A stretch of 64,000 nt of DNA from Felis catus (Eukaryota): positions 42,532,001-42,596,000 of the forward strand of contig NC_058382.1 in the NCBI RefSeq assembly GCF_018350175.1. Reading direction: 5' to 3'. Under the pieces are notes generated by a model. That model was not told where the DNA came from. It saw only the letters and a list, made by a program, of their open reading frames with translations, and did no database searches. The position numbers and the translations under genes were made by a program. This document shows positions 15,741 through 55,900 of this stretch, piece by piece (within the stretch, counting starts at the first letter, position 1; each line of letters opens with the position of its first letter).

Positions 15741-15779
15741 TCCAACTTGTCCTAGAAATCAACCATTAGAAGAAATTTT

Positions 15780-16010
15780 TTTTTATTTTTATTTTTTTTA
15801 TTTTTTTAACGTTTATTTATTTTTGAGACAGAGAGAGACAGAGCATGAAGGGGGGAGGGGCAGAGAGAGAAGGAGACACAGAATCGGAAGCAGGTTCCAG
15901 GCTCTGAGCCATCAGCCCAGAGCCTGACGCAGGGCTCAAACTCACAGACCGCGAGATCGTGACCTGAGCTGAAGTCGGACGCCCAACCGATTGCGCCACC
16001 CAGGCGCCCC
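15780..16010 (-). mobile_element. Can-SINE (SINEC_Fc)
   Basis: Full head, body and tail; TSD agaagaaatttt. Confidence 0.92.
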
Positions 16011-16040
16011 AGAAGAAATTTTAAAAATGAACTGCATCTT

Positions 16041-16265
16041 GGGGTGCCTGGGCGGTTCAGTTGGTTAAGCATCCAACTTCGGTTCAGGTCATGATCTGGC
16101 TCACGGTTTATGAGTTCGAGCCCCCATGTCGGGATCTGTGCTGACAGCTCAGAGCCTGGAGCCTGCTTCATATTCTGTGTCTCCCTCTCTCTTGACCCTC
16201 CCCCATTCACAGTCTGTCTCTTTCTCGCTCTCTCAAAAATAAGCAGACATAAAAAAAATGTTTTT
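16041..16265 (+). mobile_element. Can-SINE
   Basis: Head ggggtgcctggg; degraded TSD aatgaa(c/t)tgcat(c/t)tt. Confidence 0.9.
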
Positions 16266-16313
16266 AATGAATTGCATTTTATCAACCCAGCCTGTATAGA
16301 AACTTGCACTCAT

Positions 16314-16536
16314 GGGGCACCTGGGTGGCTCGGTCAGTTGAGCATCCGACTTCGGCTCAGGTCATGATCTCTCGGTCTGTGAGTTCGAGCCCTGCGTCAG
16401 GCTCTGTGCTGACAGCTCAGAGCCTGGAGCCTGCTTCTGATTCTGTGTCTCCCTCTCTCTCTGCTCCTCCCTGATTCATGCTCTGTCTCTGTCTCAGAAA
16501 TAAATAAACATTAAAAAAAAAAAAAAAAAGAAAGAA
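16314..16536 (+). mobile_element. Can-SINE
   Basis: Perfect TSD agaaacttgcactcat. Confidence 0.92.
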
Positions 16537-16639
16537 AGAAACTTGCACTCATAATCACCATCTCCTCTCAAACCCTGAAGGACCCCACCAAGGTGAAAAA
16601 GAATCTGAGACATGCTGGGAAATGAATATAAATTAAGGA

Positions 16640-16735: not shown

Positions 16736-18538
16736 TTAGGAGCGGGCTGACAGGCACTGGTTCACAACCTCCAACAGGTGGGTATTCTCTAGGGCAGCTG
16801 CCACCCGTTCCTTATCCGCAAGCTGCTTGTTCACTGGACAGGAAGGAAGAGAGGAGGATCAAAGCCAGGCTCTGGCCAGCCTGCCGGCCAACCCGACTTC
16901 TAAGCCTTTGTATGCATATACACACTCGCACCAACCTACTGTCACCTCCTTCCCAGGACCCAGAGCTTTGACCAAGCTACCCAAACCACCTGAACCCACA
17001 CCTATCCCACCCTATTGAGATCCCTTCCACCTGGCTGCTCATGTCTGTTGCCTCATGTACTATAAAGTCTGACACATCCTGGTCCTGTGTACTTAGGAGA
17101 GGAAAAGGGCAGGGATGGAAGAACGTGGTAAGCACAGGAGACTTAAGTCAGGCCAGCTTCACTCTAGGTTGCCACCTCCAATGAGGAGTTACCCACCCAG
17201 TCGGCCTCCTTCCATCTTGCCCTACAACCCACCATGGCAAGGGGGAAGCCACAGGGCCAATGCCTCAACATCAGCCCACACTTACCTGCGTGCTCTGAGG
17301 CATGGGTCCCTGGTGTAATGTGCACGTCCATCTGGGAGGGAGACAGGTGAGGCCTGAGCACTCATCCCTGTCTACTCCCTTGTCCCCTCTCCCCCATTCA
17401 CCACCTTCCACTGATCCTATGTCCTAATCATGACTGTGGACTCTGGACCTTCCATTATGCCCCACACCCACCCACAGCCGCTCCATCATCTCTTTCCAAA
17501 GAACTGGCTGACTGCTGTTGATTTAAAGGGTTGCCTGTGCCCCAACCCTGCTCCAAATCTATATACAGCTTCCTACTTCCCTTCCTGCCAAACTCACTAC
17601 TTTTCTGCACTTTCCAGCTCAGGCCGTTATACTTGTTGTCCCATTCAAGTGTAAAGGCTCCTCCCAGTTTCATCTCTGCTTGTTGGGATCCTGGCTGGCC
17701 TCACTTTGATGTCCATGTTCATGCTCTCCATGTCCTCCTCAGTAGCAGAAGCTCACCCCTGTTCCACCCCTGGGCCCCAGTTCCAATTCACCTTGAAACG
17801 CTGGGGAAGAGATCGAAGAAGCTTGACTTTGATGGACAGGCCAATAAGGGTGGCCATGCTGCAGTGCGGAATGGTGGGTGTGAACGCCACGGCCACCGTG
17901 CTCTCGGGGTCGCTCACCTGGTTGAGGGAATGAGATCTCAGGAGGAGGCCCTCCCTCCTCCTTAGTGTGTTGCTTCACGCTAATCGTCTAACTTCTACAG
18001 GCCTCAGTTTCCTCATGCATAAAATGGGCACAGCAATCCCCCCTTCCCAAGATCCCCTGAGGAGTCCGTGAGCTGAGAGAAGGCCAGCCTCCTGGTGGCC
18101 TGCTGGGCTTTTCTGACTCTCCCGAACAACCTGCCCCCTCAGACGCTGGGAACGACTCACCTGAACCCGGACTTGCTCGACTACATTCAATTCTTCCAGC
18201 GTCAGTGGATGTTCCGGGTCATTGATGGAGCGAATCAAATGTGGCAAGTGAAGGAAAAGGGAGTCTGCCCCTTGACCCACTCGGAACCCTCCGCCGGGAA
18301 TGCCTGGCCCTGATACAGCTCTACCAACTACTGGACAACACTTCAGCCCCCTCCCAGGGCCCCGCGAACGCGCCCGCGCTTAGCAGCGGCGGATATCGAA
18401 GATCTCGCGCGCGTCGATGCTGTCTGGAACCTGCTCGTCCTCCTCGCCCGCGGTCACCGGCCGCTCCCCAGAGCGCTCGTAGATGAGGGGGTTAGCATTC
18501 TCCAAGAGGCCGCCCCCCACCCCGCCGCCCCCCACCAT
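16736..18538 (-). CDS. CIAO2B: Cytosolic iron-sulfur assembly component 2B (FAM96B/MIP18), complete, 163 aa
   Basis: Exons 18397-18538, 18161-18240, 17792-17917, 17286-17331, 16736-16833 total 492 nt. Translation [20 protein letters not shown]...[11 protein letters not shown]...PTIPHCSMA...NQCLSARS. Intron 1 is AT-AC. Confidence 0.97.
18241..18396 (-). other. CIAO2B: U12-type (minor spliceosome) AT-AC intron
   Basis: Begins ATATCCGC and ends TTTTCCTTCACTTGCCAC. Removing it restores the conserved EIF-D-LIRS reading frame. Confidence 0.88.
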
Positions 18539-18544
18539 CGCGAA

Positions 18545-18900
18545 ACCGCTGCCGGCCGCAGTAGGCGTGCACTTCCGTTCTTACCGGAGCACTTCCGGGG
18601 GACGGTTAGGGGGCGTGGCGTGGCGACGGGGTCGCAGGAGGGACAGGCAGCACCAACCGTTCTAGCTCTGGGGTTTGAGGGGAGCCGTGGCCTGGGTTCA
18701 CTCTGTGCGCTAACCCGGAGAAATGCAGTCCGCTTGGCAAATACACAGAGAAGCCACTCGAGCGGTGTTGGCCGTTCGAGCCCGCAGGGTGCTGGACGGC
18801 GGAGGCCACGGCTGACTCTCGGGGACACTAAAGACCGGCCTGGAGTATCTTCAGGCACCACTTCCTCCAGGAAGTCTGCCTTTCAGGCAGGGCGGGCGCT
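18545..18900. promoter_or_regulatory. CpG-island promoter of CIAO2B, head-to-head with CES2
   Basis: CpG-rich; two ETS/GABP motifs CACTTCCG at 18570 and 18590. The CIAO2B and CES2 ATGs are ~1.23 kb apart and divergent. Confidence 0.65.
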
Positions 18901-19219
18901 CCCGTACCAAATGCCCTCTGTGCTGGCACCGTTTACTGCGTTTCGGAACCTCCCAATGACGCGCCTGCACCCCCTCCCCCCCCATTCCACCTAGGGCCCG
19001 GGAGTGCCCTGCCGAGTCCCCAGCACAGGGACTAACAGGCGCTCTTTAAATGTTTGTCAAATAGATAAATGACCTTGAGCTCGATCTTGGCGGGTAGGGG
19101 AGGGAGGGGTGGAAAGCCGTGGGATTGGGTTGGGGTTGTCTTTACGATAATGCCACAGTCATGCGTGCACTTCAAAAGGTAGGTTCTGACTGAATAGAGA
19201 GGAGGTCCACGGAGACCCT

Positions 19220-19674
19220 CAGATCAGGGACAATAAGGCCATGAGGGACCTTGAGATGGAGCCAGAAACTGAGTCCTGAAAGCAAGAAGGAGCTTTTCAG
19301 GATGGGCAGTCACACCTCTCTGTCTTTCCTCATGCACTTCCCTTCACCGTGAACAAAGATCACTCCCATTTCTCCATCTGTGGGAATCCTGACCATGCAC
19401 CTCCTCAAGGAATCTCTTCTGGGTCCCCCAATCACAGGTTATTGCTCCCACTCTCTGGCACCCTTATCAGGTCTGTGACTATAAGGACAGTGAATGCAGT
19501 GACTCCAGGTTTGAGGAGAGAGTCGTTAGTATCGTGGAGGTATTGTGGAGGATGCCCAAGGAGGACGGAGCCAAGGGGAAGTGGCCATGTCAGTGCCTGC
19601 CTGTCACTGGTTTTTGCGTGTTCAGCAGGCTCTCCTGCCTTTCCCTTCCCAGCTAGCCCCGCCTACTTCCAGCC
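19220..19674 (+). repeat. Left arm of inverted duplication (CES2 proximal promoter/5' leader)
   Basis: Reverse complement aligns to 21330-21810 at roughly 85-90% by eye. Contains DR1/HNF4-like TGAACAAAGATCA at 19350-19362. Confidence 0.9.
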
Positions 19675-19769
19675 TAGGTCAAACTCCGTGCCCTGCTGGA
19701 GGCACTCACAGAACTGCAGCCTCTGCGCTGTCTTTGGGGTGAAAACAGCAGTTGTGCACTGGGTAGACC

Positions 19770-22700
19770 ATGCGACTGTACCTACTTCGCGGGTGTCTGA
19801 ACGCCGTGGTCTGTGGACTCCTGCTTCTCGTCCTGGGCCAGGGTGAGGCTCCCTTGAGGGGTGGCAAGGGACGGGAGTCGCACTTGCCAGATTCTGCAGA
19901 GTCAGGACCTGAGGCTGCAGGAGGGAAGGTCCCAGAGAGGTGGGAACGGGTGGAGAACCACAGTGAAGGAAACTTGCACCAGACTGAATGCTGGAGCGAT
20001 TGTCCGGAAACCCGGCGGGTGGGCCCTCACAGGCACAGAGAGAGTTGGGGCTGTCTGAGCATACAACACCAGTGATGCAAGTAGGGCCAGGAGCTCTGAG
20101 CAGCACCTGGTGACGCAGGCGGGGCTGGGGGTGGGGGCATCATTTGGGATGTTTCCTTCTTAGTGTTTGTGGTGGAGCCGGCGCTGCCCCCGAAGAAAAA
20201 TACCAGTAATAATATTCCTGATGCGGTTTGGCTTTGAGTGTTGTGCCCTTGGCCAGAAGAGCGTCCTGGCACCCACTGAAGACCCCTCTAAAGGGGCCCC
20301 AGGCAAGGTTACTGGCCCTTGGGGAATCTGGCTATACAAGCCCAAGCCCCCTGCCTCTGCATCCTAAAGAGGCTGTCTGTTTCCTCTTCACCCCATGCAC
20401 CCCCCTGGAGTGAGGGCACCTCTTGGCCTCAGAGCAAAGGTGTCACAGAGCACTTTGTGTCAGCTTCAGGTTACCAGTAGTTTAGGCTATTCTGGCACCA
20501 TGCCTCGGTGTCTGCAGCTCCTGTGCCCCCTCTGGCCAGTGTGATCCTCTCACCCAAAACGGCCCCACCTGTGAGACCTGACTGTCCTCCCTCTTCCCAG
20601 TTGAATCTGCCCTGGAGACATCCACATTAATCCCTTCCCCACGGCCCACCCCACTTCCACCCTTACTAGCTGCTCGCCAGGCTCTCAGCAGTCACCAAGA
20701 CCTTCCAGCAGGACGATTAAAAGTGTTAATATTTTGGATAGGACCCACTTTCAAAAAGAAATAATAGACAAGCCAGAAGAGGGCATAGGTGATATGTCTG
20801 ACCCTCTCCTGTCCCATCCGGCCCTGGCTCCTTCAAGGTCCCCAGGGCTTTTTACACACTGCTCAGTTTACCGAAGAATGGATTTGTGCACACATCCTTG
20901 GTTTTCACCTAAATGATCACAAATTCCCTCCCTTTCTGGCACCCAGCTTTTCTACTTCCTGACACAGGGGATGACTTCCCTATACCTGTACATGGTAGAG
21001 CTTCCTCATACTGTTGCATAGAACGGTTTCTCTTCAGGGATCCTTGATGTAACTGGCCTCTGATCAGGGACATTTCAGCATTGTGTCCTTTGCTATGACA
21101 ACATTCAGGATTGGAGGCCAGTGGCCTCAGTGAATTACATGGACAGATATCGCACCTGGCAAGGAACTGTGTGTGTGTAGGCAGCATGTTACTGGGGAGA
21201 GGGGTGGGCCTTTGACTTGGAAAAACATTGCTCAGTTGCCCTCTGTGGAACCTGTGAGTGCTGACTCTGATCTTATCCACATGATACGGCATCAAGCATA
21301 TTGATCCATGCTGATCTGATAAGTGATCTGGGTAGAGGTAGGCAGGCAAGCTGGGAAGGGAAAGGTAGGTCTGGCAGGAGAGCCTGACTGAACATGCAAA
21401 AACCAGTGACAGGCAGGCACTCGCATGGCCACTTCCCCTCGGCCCAGTCCCCCTTGGGCATCCTCCACAATACCAACAACCCTCTCTTCAAACCTGGAGT
21501 CACTGCATTCAATGTCCTTATGAAAGAAGAGTGGAAGGACACTCCTTTCACTCTTTGATAAGGGTGTTGGGGGCTCAAGAGTGGAAGCAATAAACTGTGA
21601 TTGGGAAACCCAGGAGAGCTTCCTTGTGGAGGTGCAGGGTCAGGATCCCCACAGATGGAGAAATGGGAACGACCTTTGTTCAGGGTAAAGGGAAGTGCAT
21701 GAGAAAAGACAGGGAGGTGTGACTGCCCATCCTGAAGCTCCTCCTTGCTTTCAGGACTCAGTTTCTGGGTCCACCTTCAAGGTCCTTCATCCCCTGTTGT
21801 CTCTGATCTGTAGGTGGTATAAATCCCCAGAGTTGTTTTTTGGGTTTGTTTTTCCCCCTTTTATTATGGAACCAGGTTCAGATTGGCCAAGTTCTGCAGA
21901 AGCAGAACCTGAACCTGCCGTAGGGAAAGCTCCAGGGAGTCAGGAGCCAGTGAAGTTAACACCAGGAGTATGGGGAGCCTGACTGGATACCTCCCTGTAC
22001 CCCAAGGTACAAAGTCAGGGCTGCCTGCAGCCACACAGCATCAAAGGGCTTCCAGTCTCTGGTAGAATAATATAACAAATCTGCTGTATCCATAATCTAC
22101 CTTCAGTAATTACGACCTGAGCAACCTGGTTTTGTCTAGACTACCACCTCTCCCTCGCACCATTATTTGAAGCAAATCCCAGATATTACATCACGTGTAG
22201 ATTTTTTATCTCCTATTAAAAGAAAAGGAATATATAGACATAAAACAATATCATGATTTCTTTTTTTAAAGATTTTTTAATTTTTTAAATTTTTTTCAAT
22301 GTTTATTTTTGAGAGAGAGACAGAGTGTGAGCAGGGGAGGGGCAGAGAGAGAGGGAGACACAGAATCTGAGGCAGGCTCCAAGCTCTGAGCTGTCAGCAC
22401 AGAGCCCGACACAGAGCCCAAACTCACAACCTGAGAGATCATGACCTGAGCTGAAGTCGAATGCTTAACTGATTGAGACATCCAGGTTACCCAAGATTTT
22501 ATTTTTCAGTAATCTCTATACCCAACATGGGGCTCAGACTTACAACCCTGAGGTCAAGAGTTACATGTTTTAACGACTGAGCCAGCCAGGAGCCCCCAAT
22601 ATCATGATTTCTTAATGCAATCAAGCATCTAGCCAAATGTTCTTATTTTGTATTATCTCATAAATGGTATTTACCTATTTTTTTTTAATCAGGATTCAAA

Positions 22701-25700
22701 TAAGGTCCATACTTTGGAAATTGGTAGACGTGTTTCTTATAATAGTGTTGAGACATGATTCACATAGCATACCATTCACCCATTTAAGTGTACAATTCAA
22801 TGGTTTTTAGTATATTCACAGAGTTCACCACATCAATTCCTCCTTTCCTCCAACTTGAGCCCTAGGCAACCATCAGTCTGCTTTATGTTTCTATGGATAT
22901 GCCAATTCTTGGCATTTTGTATAACAAAGCATCCAATATGTGATCCTTTGTGATTGACTTTTTTCACCGAGCATGAGGTTTTCAAGGTTCATCTATGCTG
23001 TAGCATGCTCAGTACTTTTTTCTTTGTAGTGCTGAATGATATTCCAACATGTAGATATGATACATTTTATTGATCCATTTAACAGNNNNNNNNNNNNNNN
23101 NNNNNNNNNNNNNNNNNNNNNNNNNNNNNNNNNNNNNNNNNNNNNNNNNNNNNNNNNNNNNNNNNNNNNNNNNNNNNNNNNNNNNNNNNNNNNNNNNNNN
23201 NNNNNNNNNNNNNNNNNNNNNNNNNNNNNNNNNNNNNNNNNNNNNNNNNNNNNACTGCCAGATATTCTTCCAAAGCATATACACCACTTTATCTCCTCAC
23301 CAGCAATATGTGAAGGTTCCAGTTTTTCTACATCCTTACTAACATTTGTTATTATTGGTCTTTAAAAAAAAAAAGTTTTATTTCTTTAAGTAATCTCTAC
23401 ACCCCACGTGGGGCTTGAACTCATGACCCCAAGATAAAGCGTCATATGCTCCTCTGACTGAGACAGCCAGGAGCCCCATTATCCACCTTTTTTTATGTGA
23501 ATCTCTTTTAATCTTCAGCATCTTCCTCTGCTTCTCTTTTATTTTCTTTATAATTTAGTTGTTACATTGAAGAAACCAATTTAGTTGTTCTGGAGAGGAT
23601 CCCAGAGTTTGGCCTTCGTTGATTATATCCATATGGTGTCTTTTAACTATTTCTCTGTCCCCAGTATGCTTGTCAACTTGTATTCATGCATTTATATTCT
23701 CAAGGCTTGACCAGATTTCAATTTTACGTTCTGCTTTGTCACGTTTTGGGGCAAGACTACTTCACATAGCGCTATGGACTCTTCCAATAGAAAACACACA
23801 TTGTCTGATTGTCTTGCTTTTTGTGACAAAGTAAGTTGTTGACGTCACAGTGAGATTTCAATGAGCGTTTCTCTTAGCACGAGTGAGGTGAACACTTCTT
23901 CGTGTGTGTATGAGCCATTTATTTGTATTCCTTACTCTGTCTGAACATATTGTCTCATCATTTCCTATTCTTTCACCAAGTACATGCAGCTAGCATATTT
24001 CTTACTCATTTGTAGAAATTCTTTGTTAAGTATATCAGCTTGGGGACACCTGGGTGGCTCAGTCAGCTGAATGTCCGACTGCGGCTCAAATCATGATCTG
24101 ACAGTTCGTGAGTTCAAGCCCCACACTGGGCTCTCTGCTGTCAGCGTAGAGCCTGCTTTGGATCCTATGTCCCACCCACCACCACCACCACCCCCCGCCC
24201 CTTCCTCGCTCACACGTTCTCTCTGAAAAATGAATAAACATTTATTAAAAAAAAAAAAAAGAATATCAGCTTGGCCCCTTGTGTTAGGTGACTTTCAGTC
24301 ACTTCCTCCCATCCCTGATCCCCACAGTAGGAGAGGTTGTACTCCCCTCATAACATCATCACTTTGTTTGAAGGATGCTTGCTTTTTTTTTTTTAACTTT
24401 TTATTTATTTATTTTAGAGAGAGAGAGAGAACGAGCAGGGGAAGGACAGAGAGAGAGGGGGACAGAGGATCTGAAGCGTGCTCTGTGCTGACAGCAGAGA
24501 GTCCAATCTGGGGCTTGATCTAACAAACCGAGAGATCATGACCTAAGCCGAAGTTGGACGCTTAACCGACCGAGCCACCCAGGTGCCCCTGTTCTAAGGA
24601 TGCTTTCTCTATGTCATTTCTTGCCACCTAGAGCATGAGATCCTTAAGCACAGGAGCCTTGGGTGTCCAACTGCCACAGTTCTACTGCCTCACTGTCAGC
24701 AGAAAGGACACTCTCATCCCTTCAAGCTTATGTGACCATATGTTTGAAGCTCCTGGAGGTCAACCAGGTGCTAAGTCCCAAGGAGCCTCACTGAGTGTGG
24801 TAGAAAAGGCCAGGGCCAGACCCAGCAAGGACAGTGGGGGGGGGGGGGAGAGAGTAGACACACAAAGGTTAAAGGCAGGACATTTGTAAAGCAAGTGTTT
24901 ATAAGTCAGAGTCCCTTGAGCTGAAGACCAGAAGGAGAGGGCAACATTAGTAGCCTGGGAGGGCAACTAATTGGTAGACTCAACCCTGATGTCCACTTCT
25001 CTGCTCACAGGCCAGGACTCTGCCAGCCCCATCCGGACCACACACACGGGGCAGGTGCGGGGGAGCCTCATCCACGTGAAAGGCACTGATGTGGGGGTCC
25101 ACACCTTCCTGGGAATTCCCTTTGCTAAACCGCCTCTAGGACCACTGCGATTTGCACCCCCTGAGCCCCCTGAATCTTGGAGTGGTGTAAAAGACGGGAC
25201 CTCCCACCCAGCTATGTAAGCAGGGAGTCCAAGGAACTCCAGTCCCTGGGGTGGAGGGTACTCTGGGCCAGGTTACAGTTGTCATTTCATCTAAGCCTCC
25301 ACAGCCAGTCTCCCCTCTGAGTTTGATGGGTCCTCACATGCATTTTTTCCACGAGCATGCAGAGGCTTGGAATGGCAAAGTAACTTTCCCAGGCTCGGGG
25401 CTTGGCACTTAAGGGGCATTAGCTCCAAGTGCTGAAGGGATGAGCAGAGATACAGATGTGCCTAGGTTCTAGTTATGTCAAGTGTTCTCTGCCACCAGGG
25501 AAGGTGTCTCTGGGAGAGGTTGAGTTGGCTCCATGAACCCTATGGGAGCCCCTGACTCCAGCAGCAGATACTGTAGATCCCTGAGGAGTAGAGGACCCCC
25601 ACTGTGTGCAGTTACCGTGCCAGTGGCAGGGCCAACTGCCGTTGGCCAAAGGGCTTGCGTATGTTCTTGCTACTGGAAACCATGTTGGAGTGATGAGGTT

Positions 25701-41173: not shown

Positions 41174-41307
41174 NNNNNNNNNNNNNNNNNNNNNNNNNNN
41201 NNNNNNNNNNNNNNNNNNNNNNNNNNNNNNNNNNNNNNNNNNNNNNNNNNNNNNNNNNNNNNNNNNNNNNNNNNNNNNNNNNNNNNNNNNNNNNNNNNNN
41301 NNNNNNN
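41174..41307. other. Assembly gap
   Basis: N run. Confidence 1.
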
Positions 41308-43952: not shown

Positions 43953-44190
43953 AGATTTGAAGGTGATCTGGCTGTGACATCTGTCACCTCATTGATCGCC
44001 AGGATTGATTCAGCTGATCTGACTGGCTAGGTGGGTGTCCCCTTCCTCCCTCATCGCTGCATTGTGTCCTTCCCAAAGCTGCACTATCAGTCAAGGATGA
44101 CCTTCCCCAATAGAGGAAGACCATTCATTCTTCAGTCAAGGGAATATGAGTAGCTGCGCTCTCCTGCTAGAACCTCCAAACAAGCTCTCA
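43953..44190 (+). pseudogene. RN7SK: 3'-truncated 7SK snRNA retrocopy
   Basis: gatctggctgtgacatctgtcacc...gattcagctgatctgactggctagg...gagtagctgcgctc.cctgctagaacctccaaacaagctctca matches 7SK nt ~1-240. Flanked by an imperfect direct repeat agaga(t/g)g(t/c)gcagt. Confidence 0.93.
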
Positions 44191-46824
44191 GAGAGGCGCA
44201 GTGACTTGTCTAAGGTCACCCAGCAGGGCCCATCCCCAATTCTCAGGCATTCATTGATTTTTCCCACATTCAGCACTTCTCCTGGGAGAAAAGTCTTGCT
44301 TCCTCCAAGCCTAGTGGCTAGTCCCTGACACAGCCCTAGAATAGCACCAAGTTCCTATCTTTGTGACCTTAGGCAAGATACCTAACCCCTCTGTGCCTCA
44401 GTTTCCTCATTTGCAAAATGGCAACAATAATAGACTCTAACCCATAGGTTGTTGTGAGGATGAAATTAATGATTGCACATAAAGCACATGGAATGGTGCA
44501 CAATGGCCAGCAAGTGCTCAGTAAATGCTTGCTGATAATTATGGTGTCATCATCAGTATTGTTACTGGTGTTGGTGTTATTGGTGTTATTATGAGCCAGT
44601 CCTGTTAGAGGTAGGACCTGGTCAGGCTGAGGGTACCTAACTCTGATGCCACCCTCTCTCCGCAGATTCTGGAGCTCCCGTCTTTTTCTATGAGTTCCAG
44701 CATCGACCCAGTTCTTTTGCGAAGATCAAACCAGACTGGGTGAGGGCTGACCATGGGGCTGAGATTGCCTTCATATTCGGGGGTCCTTTCCTCATGGATG
44801 AGAACTCCCTGCTGGGTGAGGACAGATAGACATCGATCCCTGGGCTGTAGGCTCCACAGGCTAGGGTGGGGCTTGCAGGCACAGAGGTCTCCAGTCAGCA
44901 CAGGGAACCCTTGGGTTCTCTCCAAGACCCACCTGACCTTGATCTAGGTCTGTTCCTCCCCTAGCCTTTCCAGAAGCTACACAGGAGGAGAAGCAGCTGA
45001 GCCTCACCATGATGGCCCAGTGGACCCAATTTGCCCGGACAGGGTGAGTGAGCAAGTGGGAACACCTGGCTTTGGGCCTCTACTAAGCAGATCTTCCCCC
45101 AGGGGATAAAGCAGGCGGCCCTGGACTTCATTCATTTTTCCTACCCAGGGACCCCATTCAAGCAGTTGGAGCAATACCTGGAGATCAGCCCGACACCACG
45201 AGTTGGCCAGAAGCTAAGAGAAGCCCAAATGCAGTTCTGGGCAGAGATACTTTCTGCCAACTTCCGGCAGTGGCAGCAGAAGCAGAAGGGCAGGAAGGCC
45301 CAGGAGGAGCTCTGAGGCAGGGCATGGGCCTTCTTGGCTGGAGGCTAACCCTAGGGGTGGCAGAGTCCCAGCAAAACAGCTTCTTTCTCCCCCTGCTAAG
45401 AAACTTTAACTTAAACCAAACTGATGTATGGACATGTCCCTTAAGGAATCAGCCCCTCCATGACTGGCATTGTGCTGTTGAAATGTCACCTGCTTCCCAC
45501 TTTAAGGGCCTCTGTACAAACTCCTCCCTCTTCTTTCCCCCTTGCTTCCTAGCAAGTTCCAGCTCTTTCCTTAAGCTCCCTCCTCCATGAAGCTTTCCCT
45601 GCCTTCTCTAGGCCCAAGTGTATGTCCGTTACAGCATAGCCCACTCCAGGCTAGCACTGTCTGTATCTGTGTCTCTTTCCCTTCTCTGAGAGTAGAAATC
45701 AACCTGACCCCACTCTGTATCTTCCCCACAAGGATCAGGAGGACTTGGAGTCAGGGATGTTTGATGAGCGAGTAAAAGACTGAGTGTGTGAATGGTGGCT
45801 GCTGGATGTGAACCCAGGCTCTTCAGCCACCAAAGCTATGCTCAGGCCTACACAGATGTGCCCCTTGGCCAGAAGGGTGAACGGACTCCAAAGGCAGTCC
45901 TGGGGTAGGAGGAAGTCCTGAGACCTCAAAGAATTCTCTAGAATGGATCTCAGCCCCCAAAGGCCTCTAACTCAGGCTAAAGGAGATCCTTTTCTCTGTG
46001 CTGCCCAGACTTGTTCCCCTGCTCCCCTGCACAAGACACAGCAGAATCCAGCAGGGCCAGAGCCCTGACTCTTAGCCTATGAGATGTCAGCTTCCCAGTC
46101 CTAGTGCTTCAATGCTTTATGGCCTGCTAGGCTCCTCCCTGCCCTCCCAGCTTGGGGAGACCAACTTCTGGGGGAACTGAGCACAGCTCCACAGCACCTA
46201 CTAGGACACAGGAGAAGAGATTGGGGAGGGTGTCTGACTAGTGCATCAGTCAGACTATTGTCACAGAGAAAAGAAGAGGCCTACCCACTCAGGCCACAAC
46301 AAGTGAAGAGGAGCCAGAGGCTTTTGAGGCAAACATTTCTTCTTTTTGAGAATCAATGCACCACTCCCTTGGGGCATCTGGATTTTAATACATGCCACAA
46401 GGACTTTCTTTCCCTGCCCCCACTATCTCATCCTACAGGTCTAATCCCACATATACCCTTCCTCCATCAGACTCAGTTCCTGGCTGCTGAGGGTTACATG
46501 AAAGCACTTGCAATTGGGACCAGTGCTGTTCAGGGAAGTCCTTTTTGGGCAAGGAGGAGACACATAAAGCCAGAGGGACACTAAGTCATACCACTCCCCT
46601 GCTCAAGAGCTCCCTGTGATTCTCTGTCACCCTTAGGGCAAGTCCAAGTTCTTCACACGGCATTGAAAGCCTTCTGTTCTCATCCCCCTTCTCCACCAGG
46701 GAAGTATGTCCCCACAAGCCAGTAGAGAGCCTGACAAGTACATAAGCCCCAATCACAGTGTGCCACTAGGGACACAGAGGGCTGTAGGAGCACAGCATAG
46801 TCCAGCCCTGACATGTGCCCTCTC

Positions 46825-46940: not shown

Positions 46941-47261
46941 NNNNNNNNNNNNNNNNNNNNNNNNNNNNNNNNNNNNNNNNNNNNNNNNNNNNNNNNNNNN
47001 NNNNNNNNNNNNNNNNNNNNNNNNNNNNNNNNNNNNNNNNNNNNNNNNNNNNNNNNNNNNNNNNNNNNNNNNNNNNNNNNNNNNNNNNNNNNNNNNNNCA
47101 TNNNNNNNNNNNNNNNNNNNNNNNNNNNNNNNNNNNNNNNNNNNNNNNNNNNNNNNNNNNNNNNNNNNNNNNNNNNNNNNNNNNNNNNNNNNNNNNNNNN
47201 NNNNNNNNNNNNNNNNNNNNNNNNNNNNNNNNNNNNNNNNNNNNNNNNNNNNNNNNNNNNN
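46941..47261. other. Assembly gap (with a 3-bp island)
   Basis: N run. Confidence 1.
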
Positions 47262-52966: not shown

Positions 52967-55900
52967 ATGAGTTGGATTCTATACCTGAGCCTCACCCTTT
53001 GCCTGATGGTGCAGACAGCCCTGGGTAAGCCCCAACTCCATCCTGAGGGTGTCAGGCAAGAGGGACATGAGAGACACAGGGGCAGGCCCTCAGCTCAACC
53101 TCTCCTGGTACAGCGGGGCAAGGGCATTTTAACAAGGTCTGGGCGGATGGGGGGGTTGTTTCGGGCACTGATCCTCCCATCAGCTAAGAGTCTAGACATT
53201 TATGTTTATATATTAAAATATATTTTATAATTTACATAATATTATGTATTTATAATTTGTTAATTTATATTTGTATTCCTTATAAAATTAATATTATATA
53301 AAATTACTACTATATTAGTATATACATTAGTGTGTATGTATATGTTACCACCAACCAGACTGAGATCTAGAACATTTCCAGCACCCCACATGCTCCTTCC
53401 CAATCAATACCCTCAAAGTAGCCACTATTCTGACCTCTATCACAAATTAGTTTTGCCTATATAAGTGCATTTAAATTTTTTTTAAATGTTTTATTTATCT
53501 TTAAGACAGAGACAGAGTGCGAGCAGCGGAAGGGCAGAGAGAGAGGGAGACCCAGAATCTGAAGCAGGCTCCAGGCTCTGAACTGTCAGCACAGAGCCCA
53601 ATCTGGGGCTTAAACTTATGAACCACAAGATCATGACCTGAGCCAAAGTCATACGCCTAACCGACTGAGCTACCCAGGCGCCCTGTTTAAGTGCATTTAA
53701 ATTTTTTTATTTGCGAGAAACTTTGCTAAATCACTTTTAGCATTTTGGCACATTTTCTTTTAGTCTTTTTATTTCATGTTTGTACACAGCTACAGTATTA
53801 GCATGTATACAACTTTATACACTGCTTTTTTTCACTTAGAATCTTATCACAAGCAGCTTATAACTTTAGTTTATAGTTAAAATTTTTTTGCCTGGTCCTG
53901 TGACATAAATGATGCTTCTAGTACTCACTATGGTATATTTAACTATGGTTCATAAAGGTCTTCGTTTTAATGCCTTTCTGACTCTTTTCTGAAGGGAGGG
54001 ACCTGAAAGTGAAATTACTGAGTCAAAATAAACTTTTAAAAACTTTTAATTTTTTTTTCAACGTTTTTATTTATTTTTGGGACAGAGAGAGACAGAGCAT
54101 GAACGGGGGAGGGGCAGAGAGAGAGGGAGACACAAAATCGGAAACAGGCTCCAGGCTCTGAGCCATCAGCCCAGAGCCTGACGCGGGGCTCGAACTCCCG
54201 GACCGCGATATCGTGACCTGGCTGAAGTCGGACGCTTAACCGACTGCGCCACCCAGGCGCCCCTAAAAACTTTTAAAAAGGTTCGGGGGTACCTGGGTGG
54301 CTCAGTTGGTTAAGCGGGTGATTCTTAATTTCGGTTGAGGTCAGGCTCTCACCATTCGTGAGCTGGAGCCCTACATCTGGCTCTGCACTGACAGCATGGA
54401 ACCTGCTTGGGATTCTGTTTCTCCCTCTCTCTGCCCCTCCCCTGCCCTCTCTCATGTGCTCTCTAAATAAATAAATAAATAAATAAATAAGTAAAAACTT
54501 AAAAAAAAAGAAATCACTGAGTCAAAGCATGTGAACGTGGCTCTTATACATTATGCCAAATTATTTCTCCAAGGCATTGTATTAATTTATCCTGCACCAA
54601 CCTGTACCAACAGTATATGTGAATATCCTTTTCACATATACTGTTTCTTTGCCAGAATTGGGGGCCATCATTTTTAATTTCTTAGGTGGAAGTTGTCTCT
54701 CCTGGTTTTAATTAGCATTTAATGCTTATTAAGAAGGTGGAATGGGGAGCCTGGGTGGCTCAGTCGGTTGGGCGTCCGACTTCAGCTCAGGTCATGATCT
54801 CACAGTTCGTAGGTTCGAGCCCTGCATAGGGCTCTGTGCTGACAGCTCAGAGCCTGGAGCCTGCTTCAGATTCTGTGTCTCTCTCTTTGCCCATTACCAC
54901 TTGCACTCTGTCTCTCACCCTCTCAAAAATAAACATTAAAAAAAAAAGAAGGTGGAATGTTTTCCTAAGTGCTCACATATTGTCTCCAGGTAGCAAGGCT
55001 GGAGTGGGGACCACTCCATGGCAGTTCTTGTTCAGGGGTGTAAAGCACTCTGCCACATGCTTAGGTGTCCCCAGAGACTGGGATGAGGACAACAGAACAT
55101 CACCGCTTAGAGTAGAACTCTGAGAAGAACCTCACTCTGTGTGACCTTGAGCAAGTTCTATAACCCCTTTGAGCTTCATTTTCCACATTTGTATTGTGCA
55201 ATAATAACATTTACTCTCTACATTTTTTAGGAAGATGAGGTGAGATAATCCATGTAAAGTGTTTGGCACAGTGCTAGGCTATAATAAAGGATCAATAAAT
55301 TATAGTTGTGGGCTAGTCAGGCTTCAGGGCAAATCCAAGTAATATGACAGACCTCTGCCTCTTTGCTGTGTCCTCTGAGACCTCAGGCTGGTTGCTGCCC
55401 CTGTCTGGGCCCTTAGTCCTCCCCTAGCTCTCCCCAGGGCCAATGAGGACTTGATGTGAGAGAACCATGTGAAAGGCTGTGTAAACTGCAAAGAACTGCA
55501 CACATAGAGGAGGTTTGAGATGGCCCTTTGCCTGCACTGGCCTGCCTACATGCTTGCAGGCCACCATTGTAGTCACTCCTTGTGCACAGATATTGCTTTT
55601 GTCAGACGTGCAGAGACTCGGGAACATGGACAGAGTGGTACTTTGGGTCACCTGCAGCTGGAGGTGCGAGGGTGTGCTCTACCACACCAATTCCAAATGC
55701 GGTGCCCAAAATCAAATGCATCAAAATCTCACGGAGGTATCTGTAAATCTACTTTCCCAGTGCAACCCTGAGATTCTCATTCAGAGGGCAGGCCTAGGAA
55801 TCTGTATTTCAGCAATGATTTCCTCAGATGATTCTGATACACAGCCAAGTTCAATAATACTCGGACCAGATTTGCTTTCTGTCATTTGCAGAGTGAGCTC

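Follow-up and report, generated by a model that had tools for sequence, protein, structure and literature searches.

Exon 1 of the feline carboxylesterase gene CES2 stands between two oppositely oriented copies of the DNA that lies upstream of it, which raises the question of how the second copy came to be inside intron 1 and whether it does anything there. The locus was examined in a 64,000-nucleotide (nt) stretch of the Felis catus assembly GCF_018350175.1 (contig NC_058382.1, positions 42,532,001 to 42,596,000 of the forward strand), hereafter the window, with coordinates counted from its first letter. The inverted repeat around exon 1 is real: it is the top off-diagonal self-BLAST match of the window (157 ranked), pairing 19220-19669 with 21810-21335 at an E value of 2e-122. 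On balance we favour the reading that the intronic copy is a locally templated duplication made by replication template switching, of the type called break-induced replication mediated by microhomology (MMBIR) or of the fork stalling and template switching (FoSTeS) type, and that it is now a near-neutral relic.

An original prediction, made from the sequence before any alignment, had placed the two copies at 19220-19674 and 21330-21810. Self-alignment bears this out, with inner ends that reach ~19681 and ~21324 and a spacer of ~1.64 kb that contains the signal-peptide exon. We refer to the upstream copy as arm 1 and to the intronic copy as arm 2 (Table 1). In a local alignment 392 of 434 aligned bases are identical (90.3%, or 79.7% counting gaps), and 398/445 (89.4%) are identical once the ends are extended; the arms differ by 13 gaps, and their longest identical run is 26 nt. 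The Kimura two-parameter (K2P) distance between them is 0.10, or 0.12 ± 0.02 in a second alignment. No third copy of the arm sequence is present elsewhere in the 64-kb window, and arm 2 carries no exon 1, as had been predicted: the search for an exon-1 relic beside it scored 964 against a shuffle mean of 941. The arrangement is not an assembly artefact, because the sampled words of 18900-22200 are all present in 14 of the 24 listed sequencing runs, or in 13 runs from 5 studies when one possible source run is set aside.

The direction of copying was read from outgroups, namely proteins whose predicted N-termini translate non-coding DNA upstream of CES2. Cetacean CES2 models run colinear with arm 1 as far as the start codon of CES2 (best E 3e-24), primate models match the 3' third of arm 1, and a narwhal model extends upstream of it. 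On this comparison arm 1 is therefore the ancestral upstream DNA of CES2, from which arm 2 was copied locally. The sequence P0166, which has the promoter position, lies 11-13% from the arms and has indels in common with arm 1 only, suggesting that the arms parted before the P0166 lineage left the felid line. A further protein, P0180, was dropped as repetitive and without a match to the region.

The same comparison bears on whether the arms could be two independent insertions of one transposon family, one of the findings named beforehand as able to undo the original prediction. Between the outgroups and the arms 11-25% of fixed sites differ, against ~10% between the arms themselves; arm 1 has colinear orthologs among cetaceans and primates and so predates the cat-primate split, yet it is only 10% from arm 2. 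Since the arm-arm distance is below the outgroup-arm distance, two insertions of an old transposon are disfavoured. Neither a poly(A) tail nor terminal repeats were seen, no further copy lies in the window, 2 x 12.9 million records held no reads from elsewhere on arm 1, and metagenome contigs searched with the arm pattern gave 0 matches (a weak test). We regard the transposon explanation as scarcely credible.

The original prediction missed an older, direct duplication beside the inverted copy. The start of intron 1 (segment a) recurs downstream of arm 2 as segment a', with a score of 3992 against 1217 ± 124 for shuffles (0/200 shuffles reach 3992) and a K2P distance of 0.42 ± 0.07; no comparable match to segment a occurs elsewhere in the window. 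A primate-type read-through is nearer to a (16 of 65 fixed sites differ) than to a' (18 of 47). Along the locus the promoter is followed by exon 1, then by a, the spacer, the inverted piece of promoter, the filler and finally a'. The filler was compared with the DNA upstream of arm 1 and with the end of exon 1, and was rejected as a relic of either for want of similarity. The two ends of arm 2 have a 7-nt word in common (21324-21330 and 21804-21810; P ~0.017 against random intron pairs), a weak fit given that the ends were picked post hoc and have aged. The inner flank of arm 2 was rejected as a decayed 5' untranslated region (70-76 of 100 random sites score equally), a 10-nt match between 19702 and 21261 was attributed to chance, and no fold-back relic within the spacer rose clearly above shuffles.

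Inverted and direct templates lying side by side point to a multi-switch templated insertion. Approximately 460 nt of CES2 upstream DNA, ending inside a direct repeat 1 (DR1)-like site, is found inverted in intron 1, and its template lies nearby in cis, 1.64 kb away, as is characteristic of templated insertions. A replication fork in intron 1 would have switched to the opposite strand at the promoter and copied ~460 nt in reverse; a second switch, to the forward strand immediately past exon 1, would have let it copy a before it returned. Among the origins listed in the original prediction, the relic of a local inverted CES2 duplication comes nearest to the evidence, the copy being local, devoid of exon 1 and not a dispersed repeat. 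With a general substitution rate, the arms may have last been one sequence, very roughly, 25-45 million years ago, a date that would mark either the copying or the last gene conversion.

Germline insertions copied in reverse and then forward from nearby templates are a described complex class (Osia et al. 2021, PMC8421209). These MMBIR-type insertions resemble the CES2 case in their nearby templates, reverse-then-forward order and germline fixation, and perhaps in short junction microhomology; they are, however, tens of bases long and polymorphic, whereas the CES2 pieces measure 460 + 175 nt and are fixed and of unequal ages. Short-range template switches (Walker et al. 2021, PMC7954356) explain the general mechanism, although they are far shorter than the arm duplication. 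They also explain a 13-bp hairpin inside arm 2 that is missing from arm 1 and from the outgroup rows covering 21527-21555, and which appears to be a typical short template-switch type change.

If the relic reading is correct, arm 2 would neither fire as a full promoter nor pair in the usual RNA, and would simply persist. The first of these expectations follows from what the copy lacks. In a promoter-completeness test, arm 2 was found to be without an intact GC box and without the second half of the proximal DR1-like site, and it also lacks most of the transcription start region and the downstream core; it is therefore not a complete promoter. The original prediction had drawn attention to a different, distal HNF4-like motif. 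Its copy does sit at 21671-21682, but it is not closer to the consensus there than in arm 1: scored as a 13-mer against an HNF4-type consensus, the motif has 3 mismatches in each arm, a level of match that recurs ~8 times per kb across the window. Whale, gorilla, P0166 and P0182 have compatible sequence at the position of the proximal DR1-like site. HNF4a directly regulates CES2 (PMC9337258), and 19676-19688 may be the site that it binds.

RNA mapping covered 4 of the 24 listed runs (X15, X16, X21 and X24; tissues unspecified) at a depth of 1-3 reads, with X19 and X20 (small share) and 18 further runs outside it. X24 yielded 19 reads from ~2% of the run and X21 a single read. All 20 raw reads have their first mate on the minus strand, which denotes sense RNA under the usual (assumed) convention, and 0 are antisense. 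At this low depth, the count lends no support to the convergent antisense promoter put forward in the original prediction, which would fire from ~21330 towards exon 1. The copy does retain the core region's upstream half, with words resembling an initiator at 21331 and 21319, but its GC box is broken, its DR1-like site is cut and the downstream core is absent, and we consider such a promoter very unlikely.

Coverage begins at ~19676 and ~19671 (bin means) and the first X16 contig at 19692, while 18900-19670 is uncovered in the 4 mapped runs (low depth; X15 is uninformative, with 2 records past the filter). Sense reads start within the last 0-11 nt of arm 1; the main transcript is thus without arm 1, for which reason the arms would not pair in the usual RNA, and a double-stranded RNA (dsRNA) stem in that transcript is not supported. 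There remains a version in which transcripts from near the shared CpG island include arm 1, pair with arm 2 and loop out exon 1, and are edited or mis-spliced so that upstream-started RNA is damped. The arm 1/arm 2 duplex is predicted at -752 kcal/mol, in cetaceans the gene models run through the arm-1 ortholog or splice inside it, implying upstream starts there, 5/16 felid models are without exons 1-2 coding, and X15 holds 0.96 of the words of the region. However, the DNA upstream of the start region is uncovered, as noted above, and no A>G change was seen within the arms, although contigs drop rare variants, reads less than 88% alike are uncounted and arm-2 reads are few. The sole A>G, at 20690 (3/3 reads), is in the spacer and looks allelic. 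Two X16 contigs across arm 2 show no variant letters, and no strand-switch joints are listed in the 4 RNA runs. We judge dsRNA damping to be very improbable. Given the spliced, upstream-started transcripts that the cetacean models imply, felids may nonetheless make a minor transcript containing both arms.

Those cetacean models join upstream exons (~19092 and 19498) to a splice acceptor that lies within the proximal DR1-like site (19676-19688), through the arm-1 ortholog, which implies transcripts from the shared promoter upstream in these species. An apparent dolphin deletion between mid-arm and the DR1-like site was rejected, as unspliced records show it to be a splice, and a spacer match to an alternative exon of whale (E 0.001) did not reappear in a DNA-level scan and was not used. 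Three poly(A)-tailed X24 reads end at 20200, an A-rich spot without AATAAA; these ends probably reflect internal priming, and possibly an intronic poly(A) site. Contigs of X15 and X16 that derive from other loci match 19910-19946 and 21836-21869 and then diverge.

Several observations weigh against a templated, near-neutral relic. The RNA depth is only 1-3 reads, no raw read falls inside most of arm 2 (X24 has nearly none there), and X15, from which only 2 records mapped, holds 0.96 of the words and so probably arm 1. Metagenome scans, where an outgroup empty site for the copy was sought, gave none. The two duplications also differ in apparent age: with a K2P of 0.42 against 0.10-0.12 for the arms, a/a' looks far older, so that either a single event was followed by conversion or two events occurred. 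Finally, derived substitutions are commoner on arm 1 than on arm 2, at 15:5 (P 0.04), or 12:3 with a symmetric alignment (P 0.035); with all outgroups the ratio is 15:6 (P 0.08) or 20:11 (P 0.15). These counts drop 19455-19482 (the indel and hairpin region) and leave 10-26 differences without polarity. A dead copy of a working element would be expected to have the reverse asymmetry or none, and this post hoc contrast is the only hint of arm-2 function; raised mutation beside a CpG-island promoter could also give the arm-1 excess.

The age difference is one argument for an old inverted repeat under concerted evolution, in which a joint origin of arm 2 and a', at an early stage of placental or carnivoran evolution, would have been followed by gene conversion between the arms that reset them to 90% identity. 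This history, which is compatible with either a relic or enhancer function, seems to us a serious candidate, if somewhat short of probable. The contrast between a/a' (0.42 ± 0.07) and the arms (0.12 ± 0.02) counts in its favour, as does the position of a' 57 nt from arm 2, and the indels of P0166 are common to arm 1 only. Further evidence comes from P0170, whose junction has a forward score of 9.6 bits for the arm-2 flank, compared with 2.3, 3.0, 3.8, 0.9 and -3.3 for promoter-type flanks (0/300 random sites); its local score is 18.6 versus 14.2, though the random maximum is 19.7 in 296. P0170 keeps a 20-nt segment that is also in P0169, P0171 and P0069, and in dolphin-type and whale sequences, and that is absent from both felid arms. 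If P0170 is an arm-2 ortholog, then the duplication predates the 20-nt loss and the arms were later homogenised; no change is common to arm 2 and P0170 alone. Conversely, anchored best-path scores favour arm 1 (8.4 vs 5.8) or tie (4.7 vs 4.7), 30/1476 and 49/1479 random sites reach the arm-2 anchored score, and strictly beyond the arm P0170 scores only 0.1 vs -1.2 bits. Just 1 substitution common to both arms against P0170 was scored. The lost segment lay between short direct repeats and could have been deleted twice, there is no recent conversion tract (longest identical run 26 nt, vs 31.5 in shuffles), and were P0170 a decayed promoter, one later duplication would account for all of this. 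An inverted repeat homogenised over millions of years is known from the Saccharomyces flip/flop region (Salzberg et al. 2022, PMC9731477), where the arms are almost identical and 4 kb long and the spacer re-inverts; at CES2, any conversion ended long ago, and inversion is not observed.

The substitution asymmetry, in turn, bears on whether arm 2 is a spare or relocated enhancer, which would keep the ancestral upstream binding sites and work from intron 1 in either orientation, freeing arm 1 to drift. Besides the excess of derived changes on arm 1, that arm has lost 1-nt and 9-nt pieces kept by arm 2, whale and gorilla, all 11 outgroup proteins are nearer to arm 2 (they are not independent), and against P0166 there are 10 arm-1-only changes versus 1 arm-2-only change. 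The regulation of CES2 by HNF4a (PMC9337258) fits such a role. Nevertheless, the asymmetry was noticed after the fact and loses strength as outgroups are added (P 0.08-0.15), and promoter-adjacent mutation could explain it; the distal motif is chance-level, and arm 2 has its own indels and hairpin insertion. Conservation of the segment is near flank level: the arms are 18-24% divergent from cetaceans and the upstream flank 24%, which argues for little constraint. We regard an enhancer in arm 2 as unlikely, though as the chief rival of the relic reading, and as distinctly improbable the combined case in which an old inverted repeat was kept alike by conversion across carnivorans or more widely, with the intronic arm a conserved working enhancer and the felid promoter-side original drifting. 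The palindrome of the immunoglobulin heavy chain (IgH) 3' regulatory region (PMC9936319) serves as a model for joining enhancer function to concerted evolution: it too is a mammalian inverted duplication around a regulatory element, and its arms are alike within species. There, however, function is demonstrated and the architecture is conserved across mammals, whereas for the CES2 repeat both are conjectural.

The geometry of the repeat would also fit a recombination substrate, or a scar, for inversion of exon 1, as had been suggested, and a human CES1 inversion between long inverted repeats is reported (bioRxiv 10.64898/2025.12.03.692062). That system (CES1/CES1A2/CES1P1) belongs to the same gene family and has an inverted duplicate whose promoter, exon 1 and intron 1 differ. 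Its arms are whole-gene, 10-36 kb long and 99.5% or more identical, and flank a polymorphic inversion; in contrast, the CES2 copy is a promoter fragment inside the gene, 90% identical, interrupted by 13 gaps, with no identical run above 26 nt, and without exon 1. Exon 1 is in the sense orientation and is kept in 11/16 felid protein models, the 4 RNA runs show no joints, and 13 runs hold all words of the present arrangement (a rare allele may exist). We consider exon 1 inversion highly improbable.

Across arm 2, 21276-21776 on the minus strand forms a 167-codon stop-free frame, a length reached in 18/5000 shuffles, and the frame is also long and open in the upstream DNA of several other mammals. 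A coding role was rejected: differences between the arms fall 12/12/12 by codon position and comprise 10 synonymous versus 26 non-synonymous changes. The frame has no Pfam match, and its Atlas matches are 0.80 or lower. Taken by itself, arm 2 has no better fold than shuffled sequence (z 0.16), and an Rfam scan of the window for known structured RNA matches only 43953-44300, a full-length 7SK-like copy (167 bits) in an intron of the second carboxylesterase gene. A search of metagenomes with the CES2 protein gave 1 bacterial esterase locus among 54 candidates.

As far as searched, the arrangement is new at this locus, multi-switch templated insertion itself being known; no description of this CES2 repeat was found in the open-access literature (subscription papers and supplements were not covered). 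The sites of CES2 expression differ among species. Lipids are hydrolysed by CES2, and ester drugs activated or cleared (PMC12721188, PMC13704504). If arm 2 works as an enhancer, it would give this lineage a lever of its own on how cats handle drugs, and would be a clean natural test of a duplicated regulatory block that moves into an intron and replaces its source. As a relic, it would be a datable multi-switch duplication, and it would call for caution with primers and read mapping at the feline CES2 promoter.

Table 1. Features of the CES2 5' region and its surroundings (window coordinates).
Feature	Position	Strand	Basis
Arm 1, CES2 upstream DNA, putative template of the copy	19220..19681	+	Self-alignment; colinear with the read-throughs of CES2 models from cetaceans and primates
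Arm 2, inverted copy in intron 1	21324..21810	-	Self-alignment
Segment a, start of intron 1, putative template of the direct copy	19868..20071	+	Self-alignment
Segment a', old direct copy of a	21868..22043	+	69% identity across 174 aligned bases
Filler between arm 2 and a', 57 nt	21811..21867		No source matched
Derived hairpin inside arm 2	21527..21555		13-bp stem, 12 paired, 3-nt loop
Distal motif, HNF4-like	19350..19362	+	3 mismatches to consensus; chance-level
Copy of distal motif	21670..21682	-	3 mismatches to consensus
GC box	19657..19663	+	Motif scan; intact in arm 1, broken in arm 2
Proximal DR1/HNF4-like site, predicted	19676..19688	+	2 mismatches; duplication breakpoint after first half-site
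Approximate transcription start region	19671..19692	+	First coverage, three runs; low depth
CES2 exon 1 coding part, signal peptide	19770..19842	+	tblastn with felid CES2 proteins; ATG at 19770, GT donor after 19842
CES2 exon 2	25011..25215	+	100% to Puma CES2; Pfam COesterase, E 2e-21
Coding exon, upstream divergent gene	18152..18250	-	Pfam FeS_assembly_P, E 0.0014, 19.3 bits (33-aa piece; under the 23.5-bit cut-off)

The CES2 exon chain spans 19770 to ~30705 of the window, with intron 1 at 19843-25010, and its nearest protein model is a Felis catus isoform. Five felid CES2 models (453 aa) begin at an exon 3 Met (26146) and are without the signal peptide. The divergent gene upstream encodes an Fe-S assembly protein, which we take from synteny to be CIAO2B, and the two further carboxylesterase genes downstream of CES2 are, on the same grounds, presumably CES3 and CES4A. 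The window contains four runs of Ns (23086-23253, 41174-41307, 46941-47098 and 47102-47261), the first of which is in CES2 intron 1, downstream of the inverted copy. Short interspersed element (SINE) copies, assumed to be of the carnivore tRNA type, matched at 14 places in the window and lie adjacent and in opposite orientation at 15778-16541 and 54044-54950.

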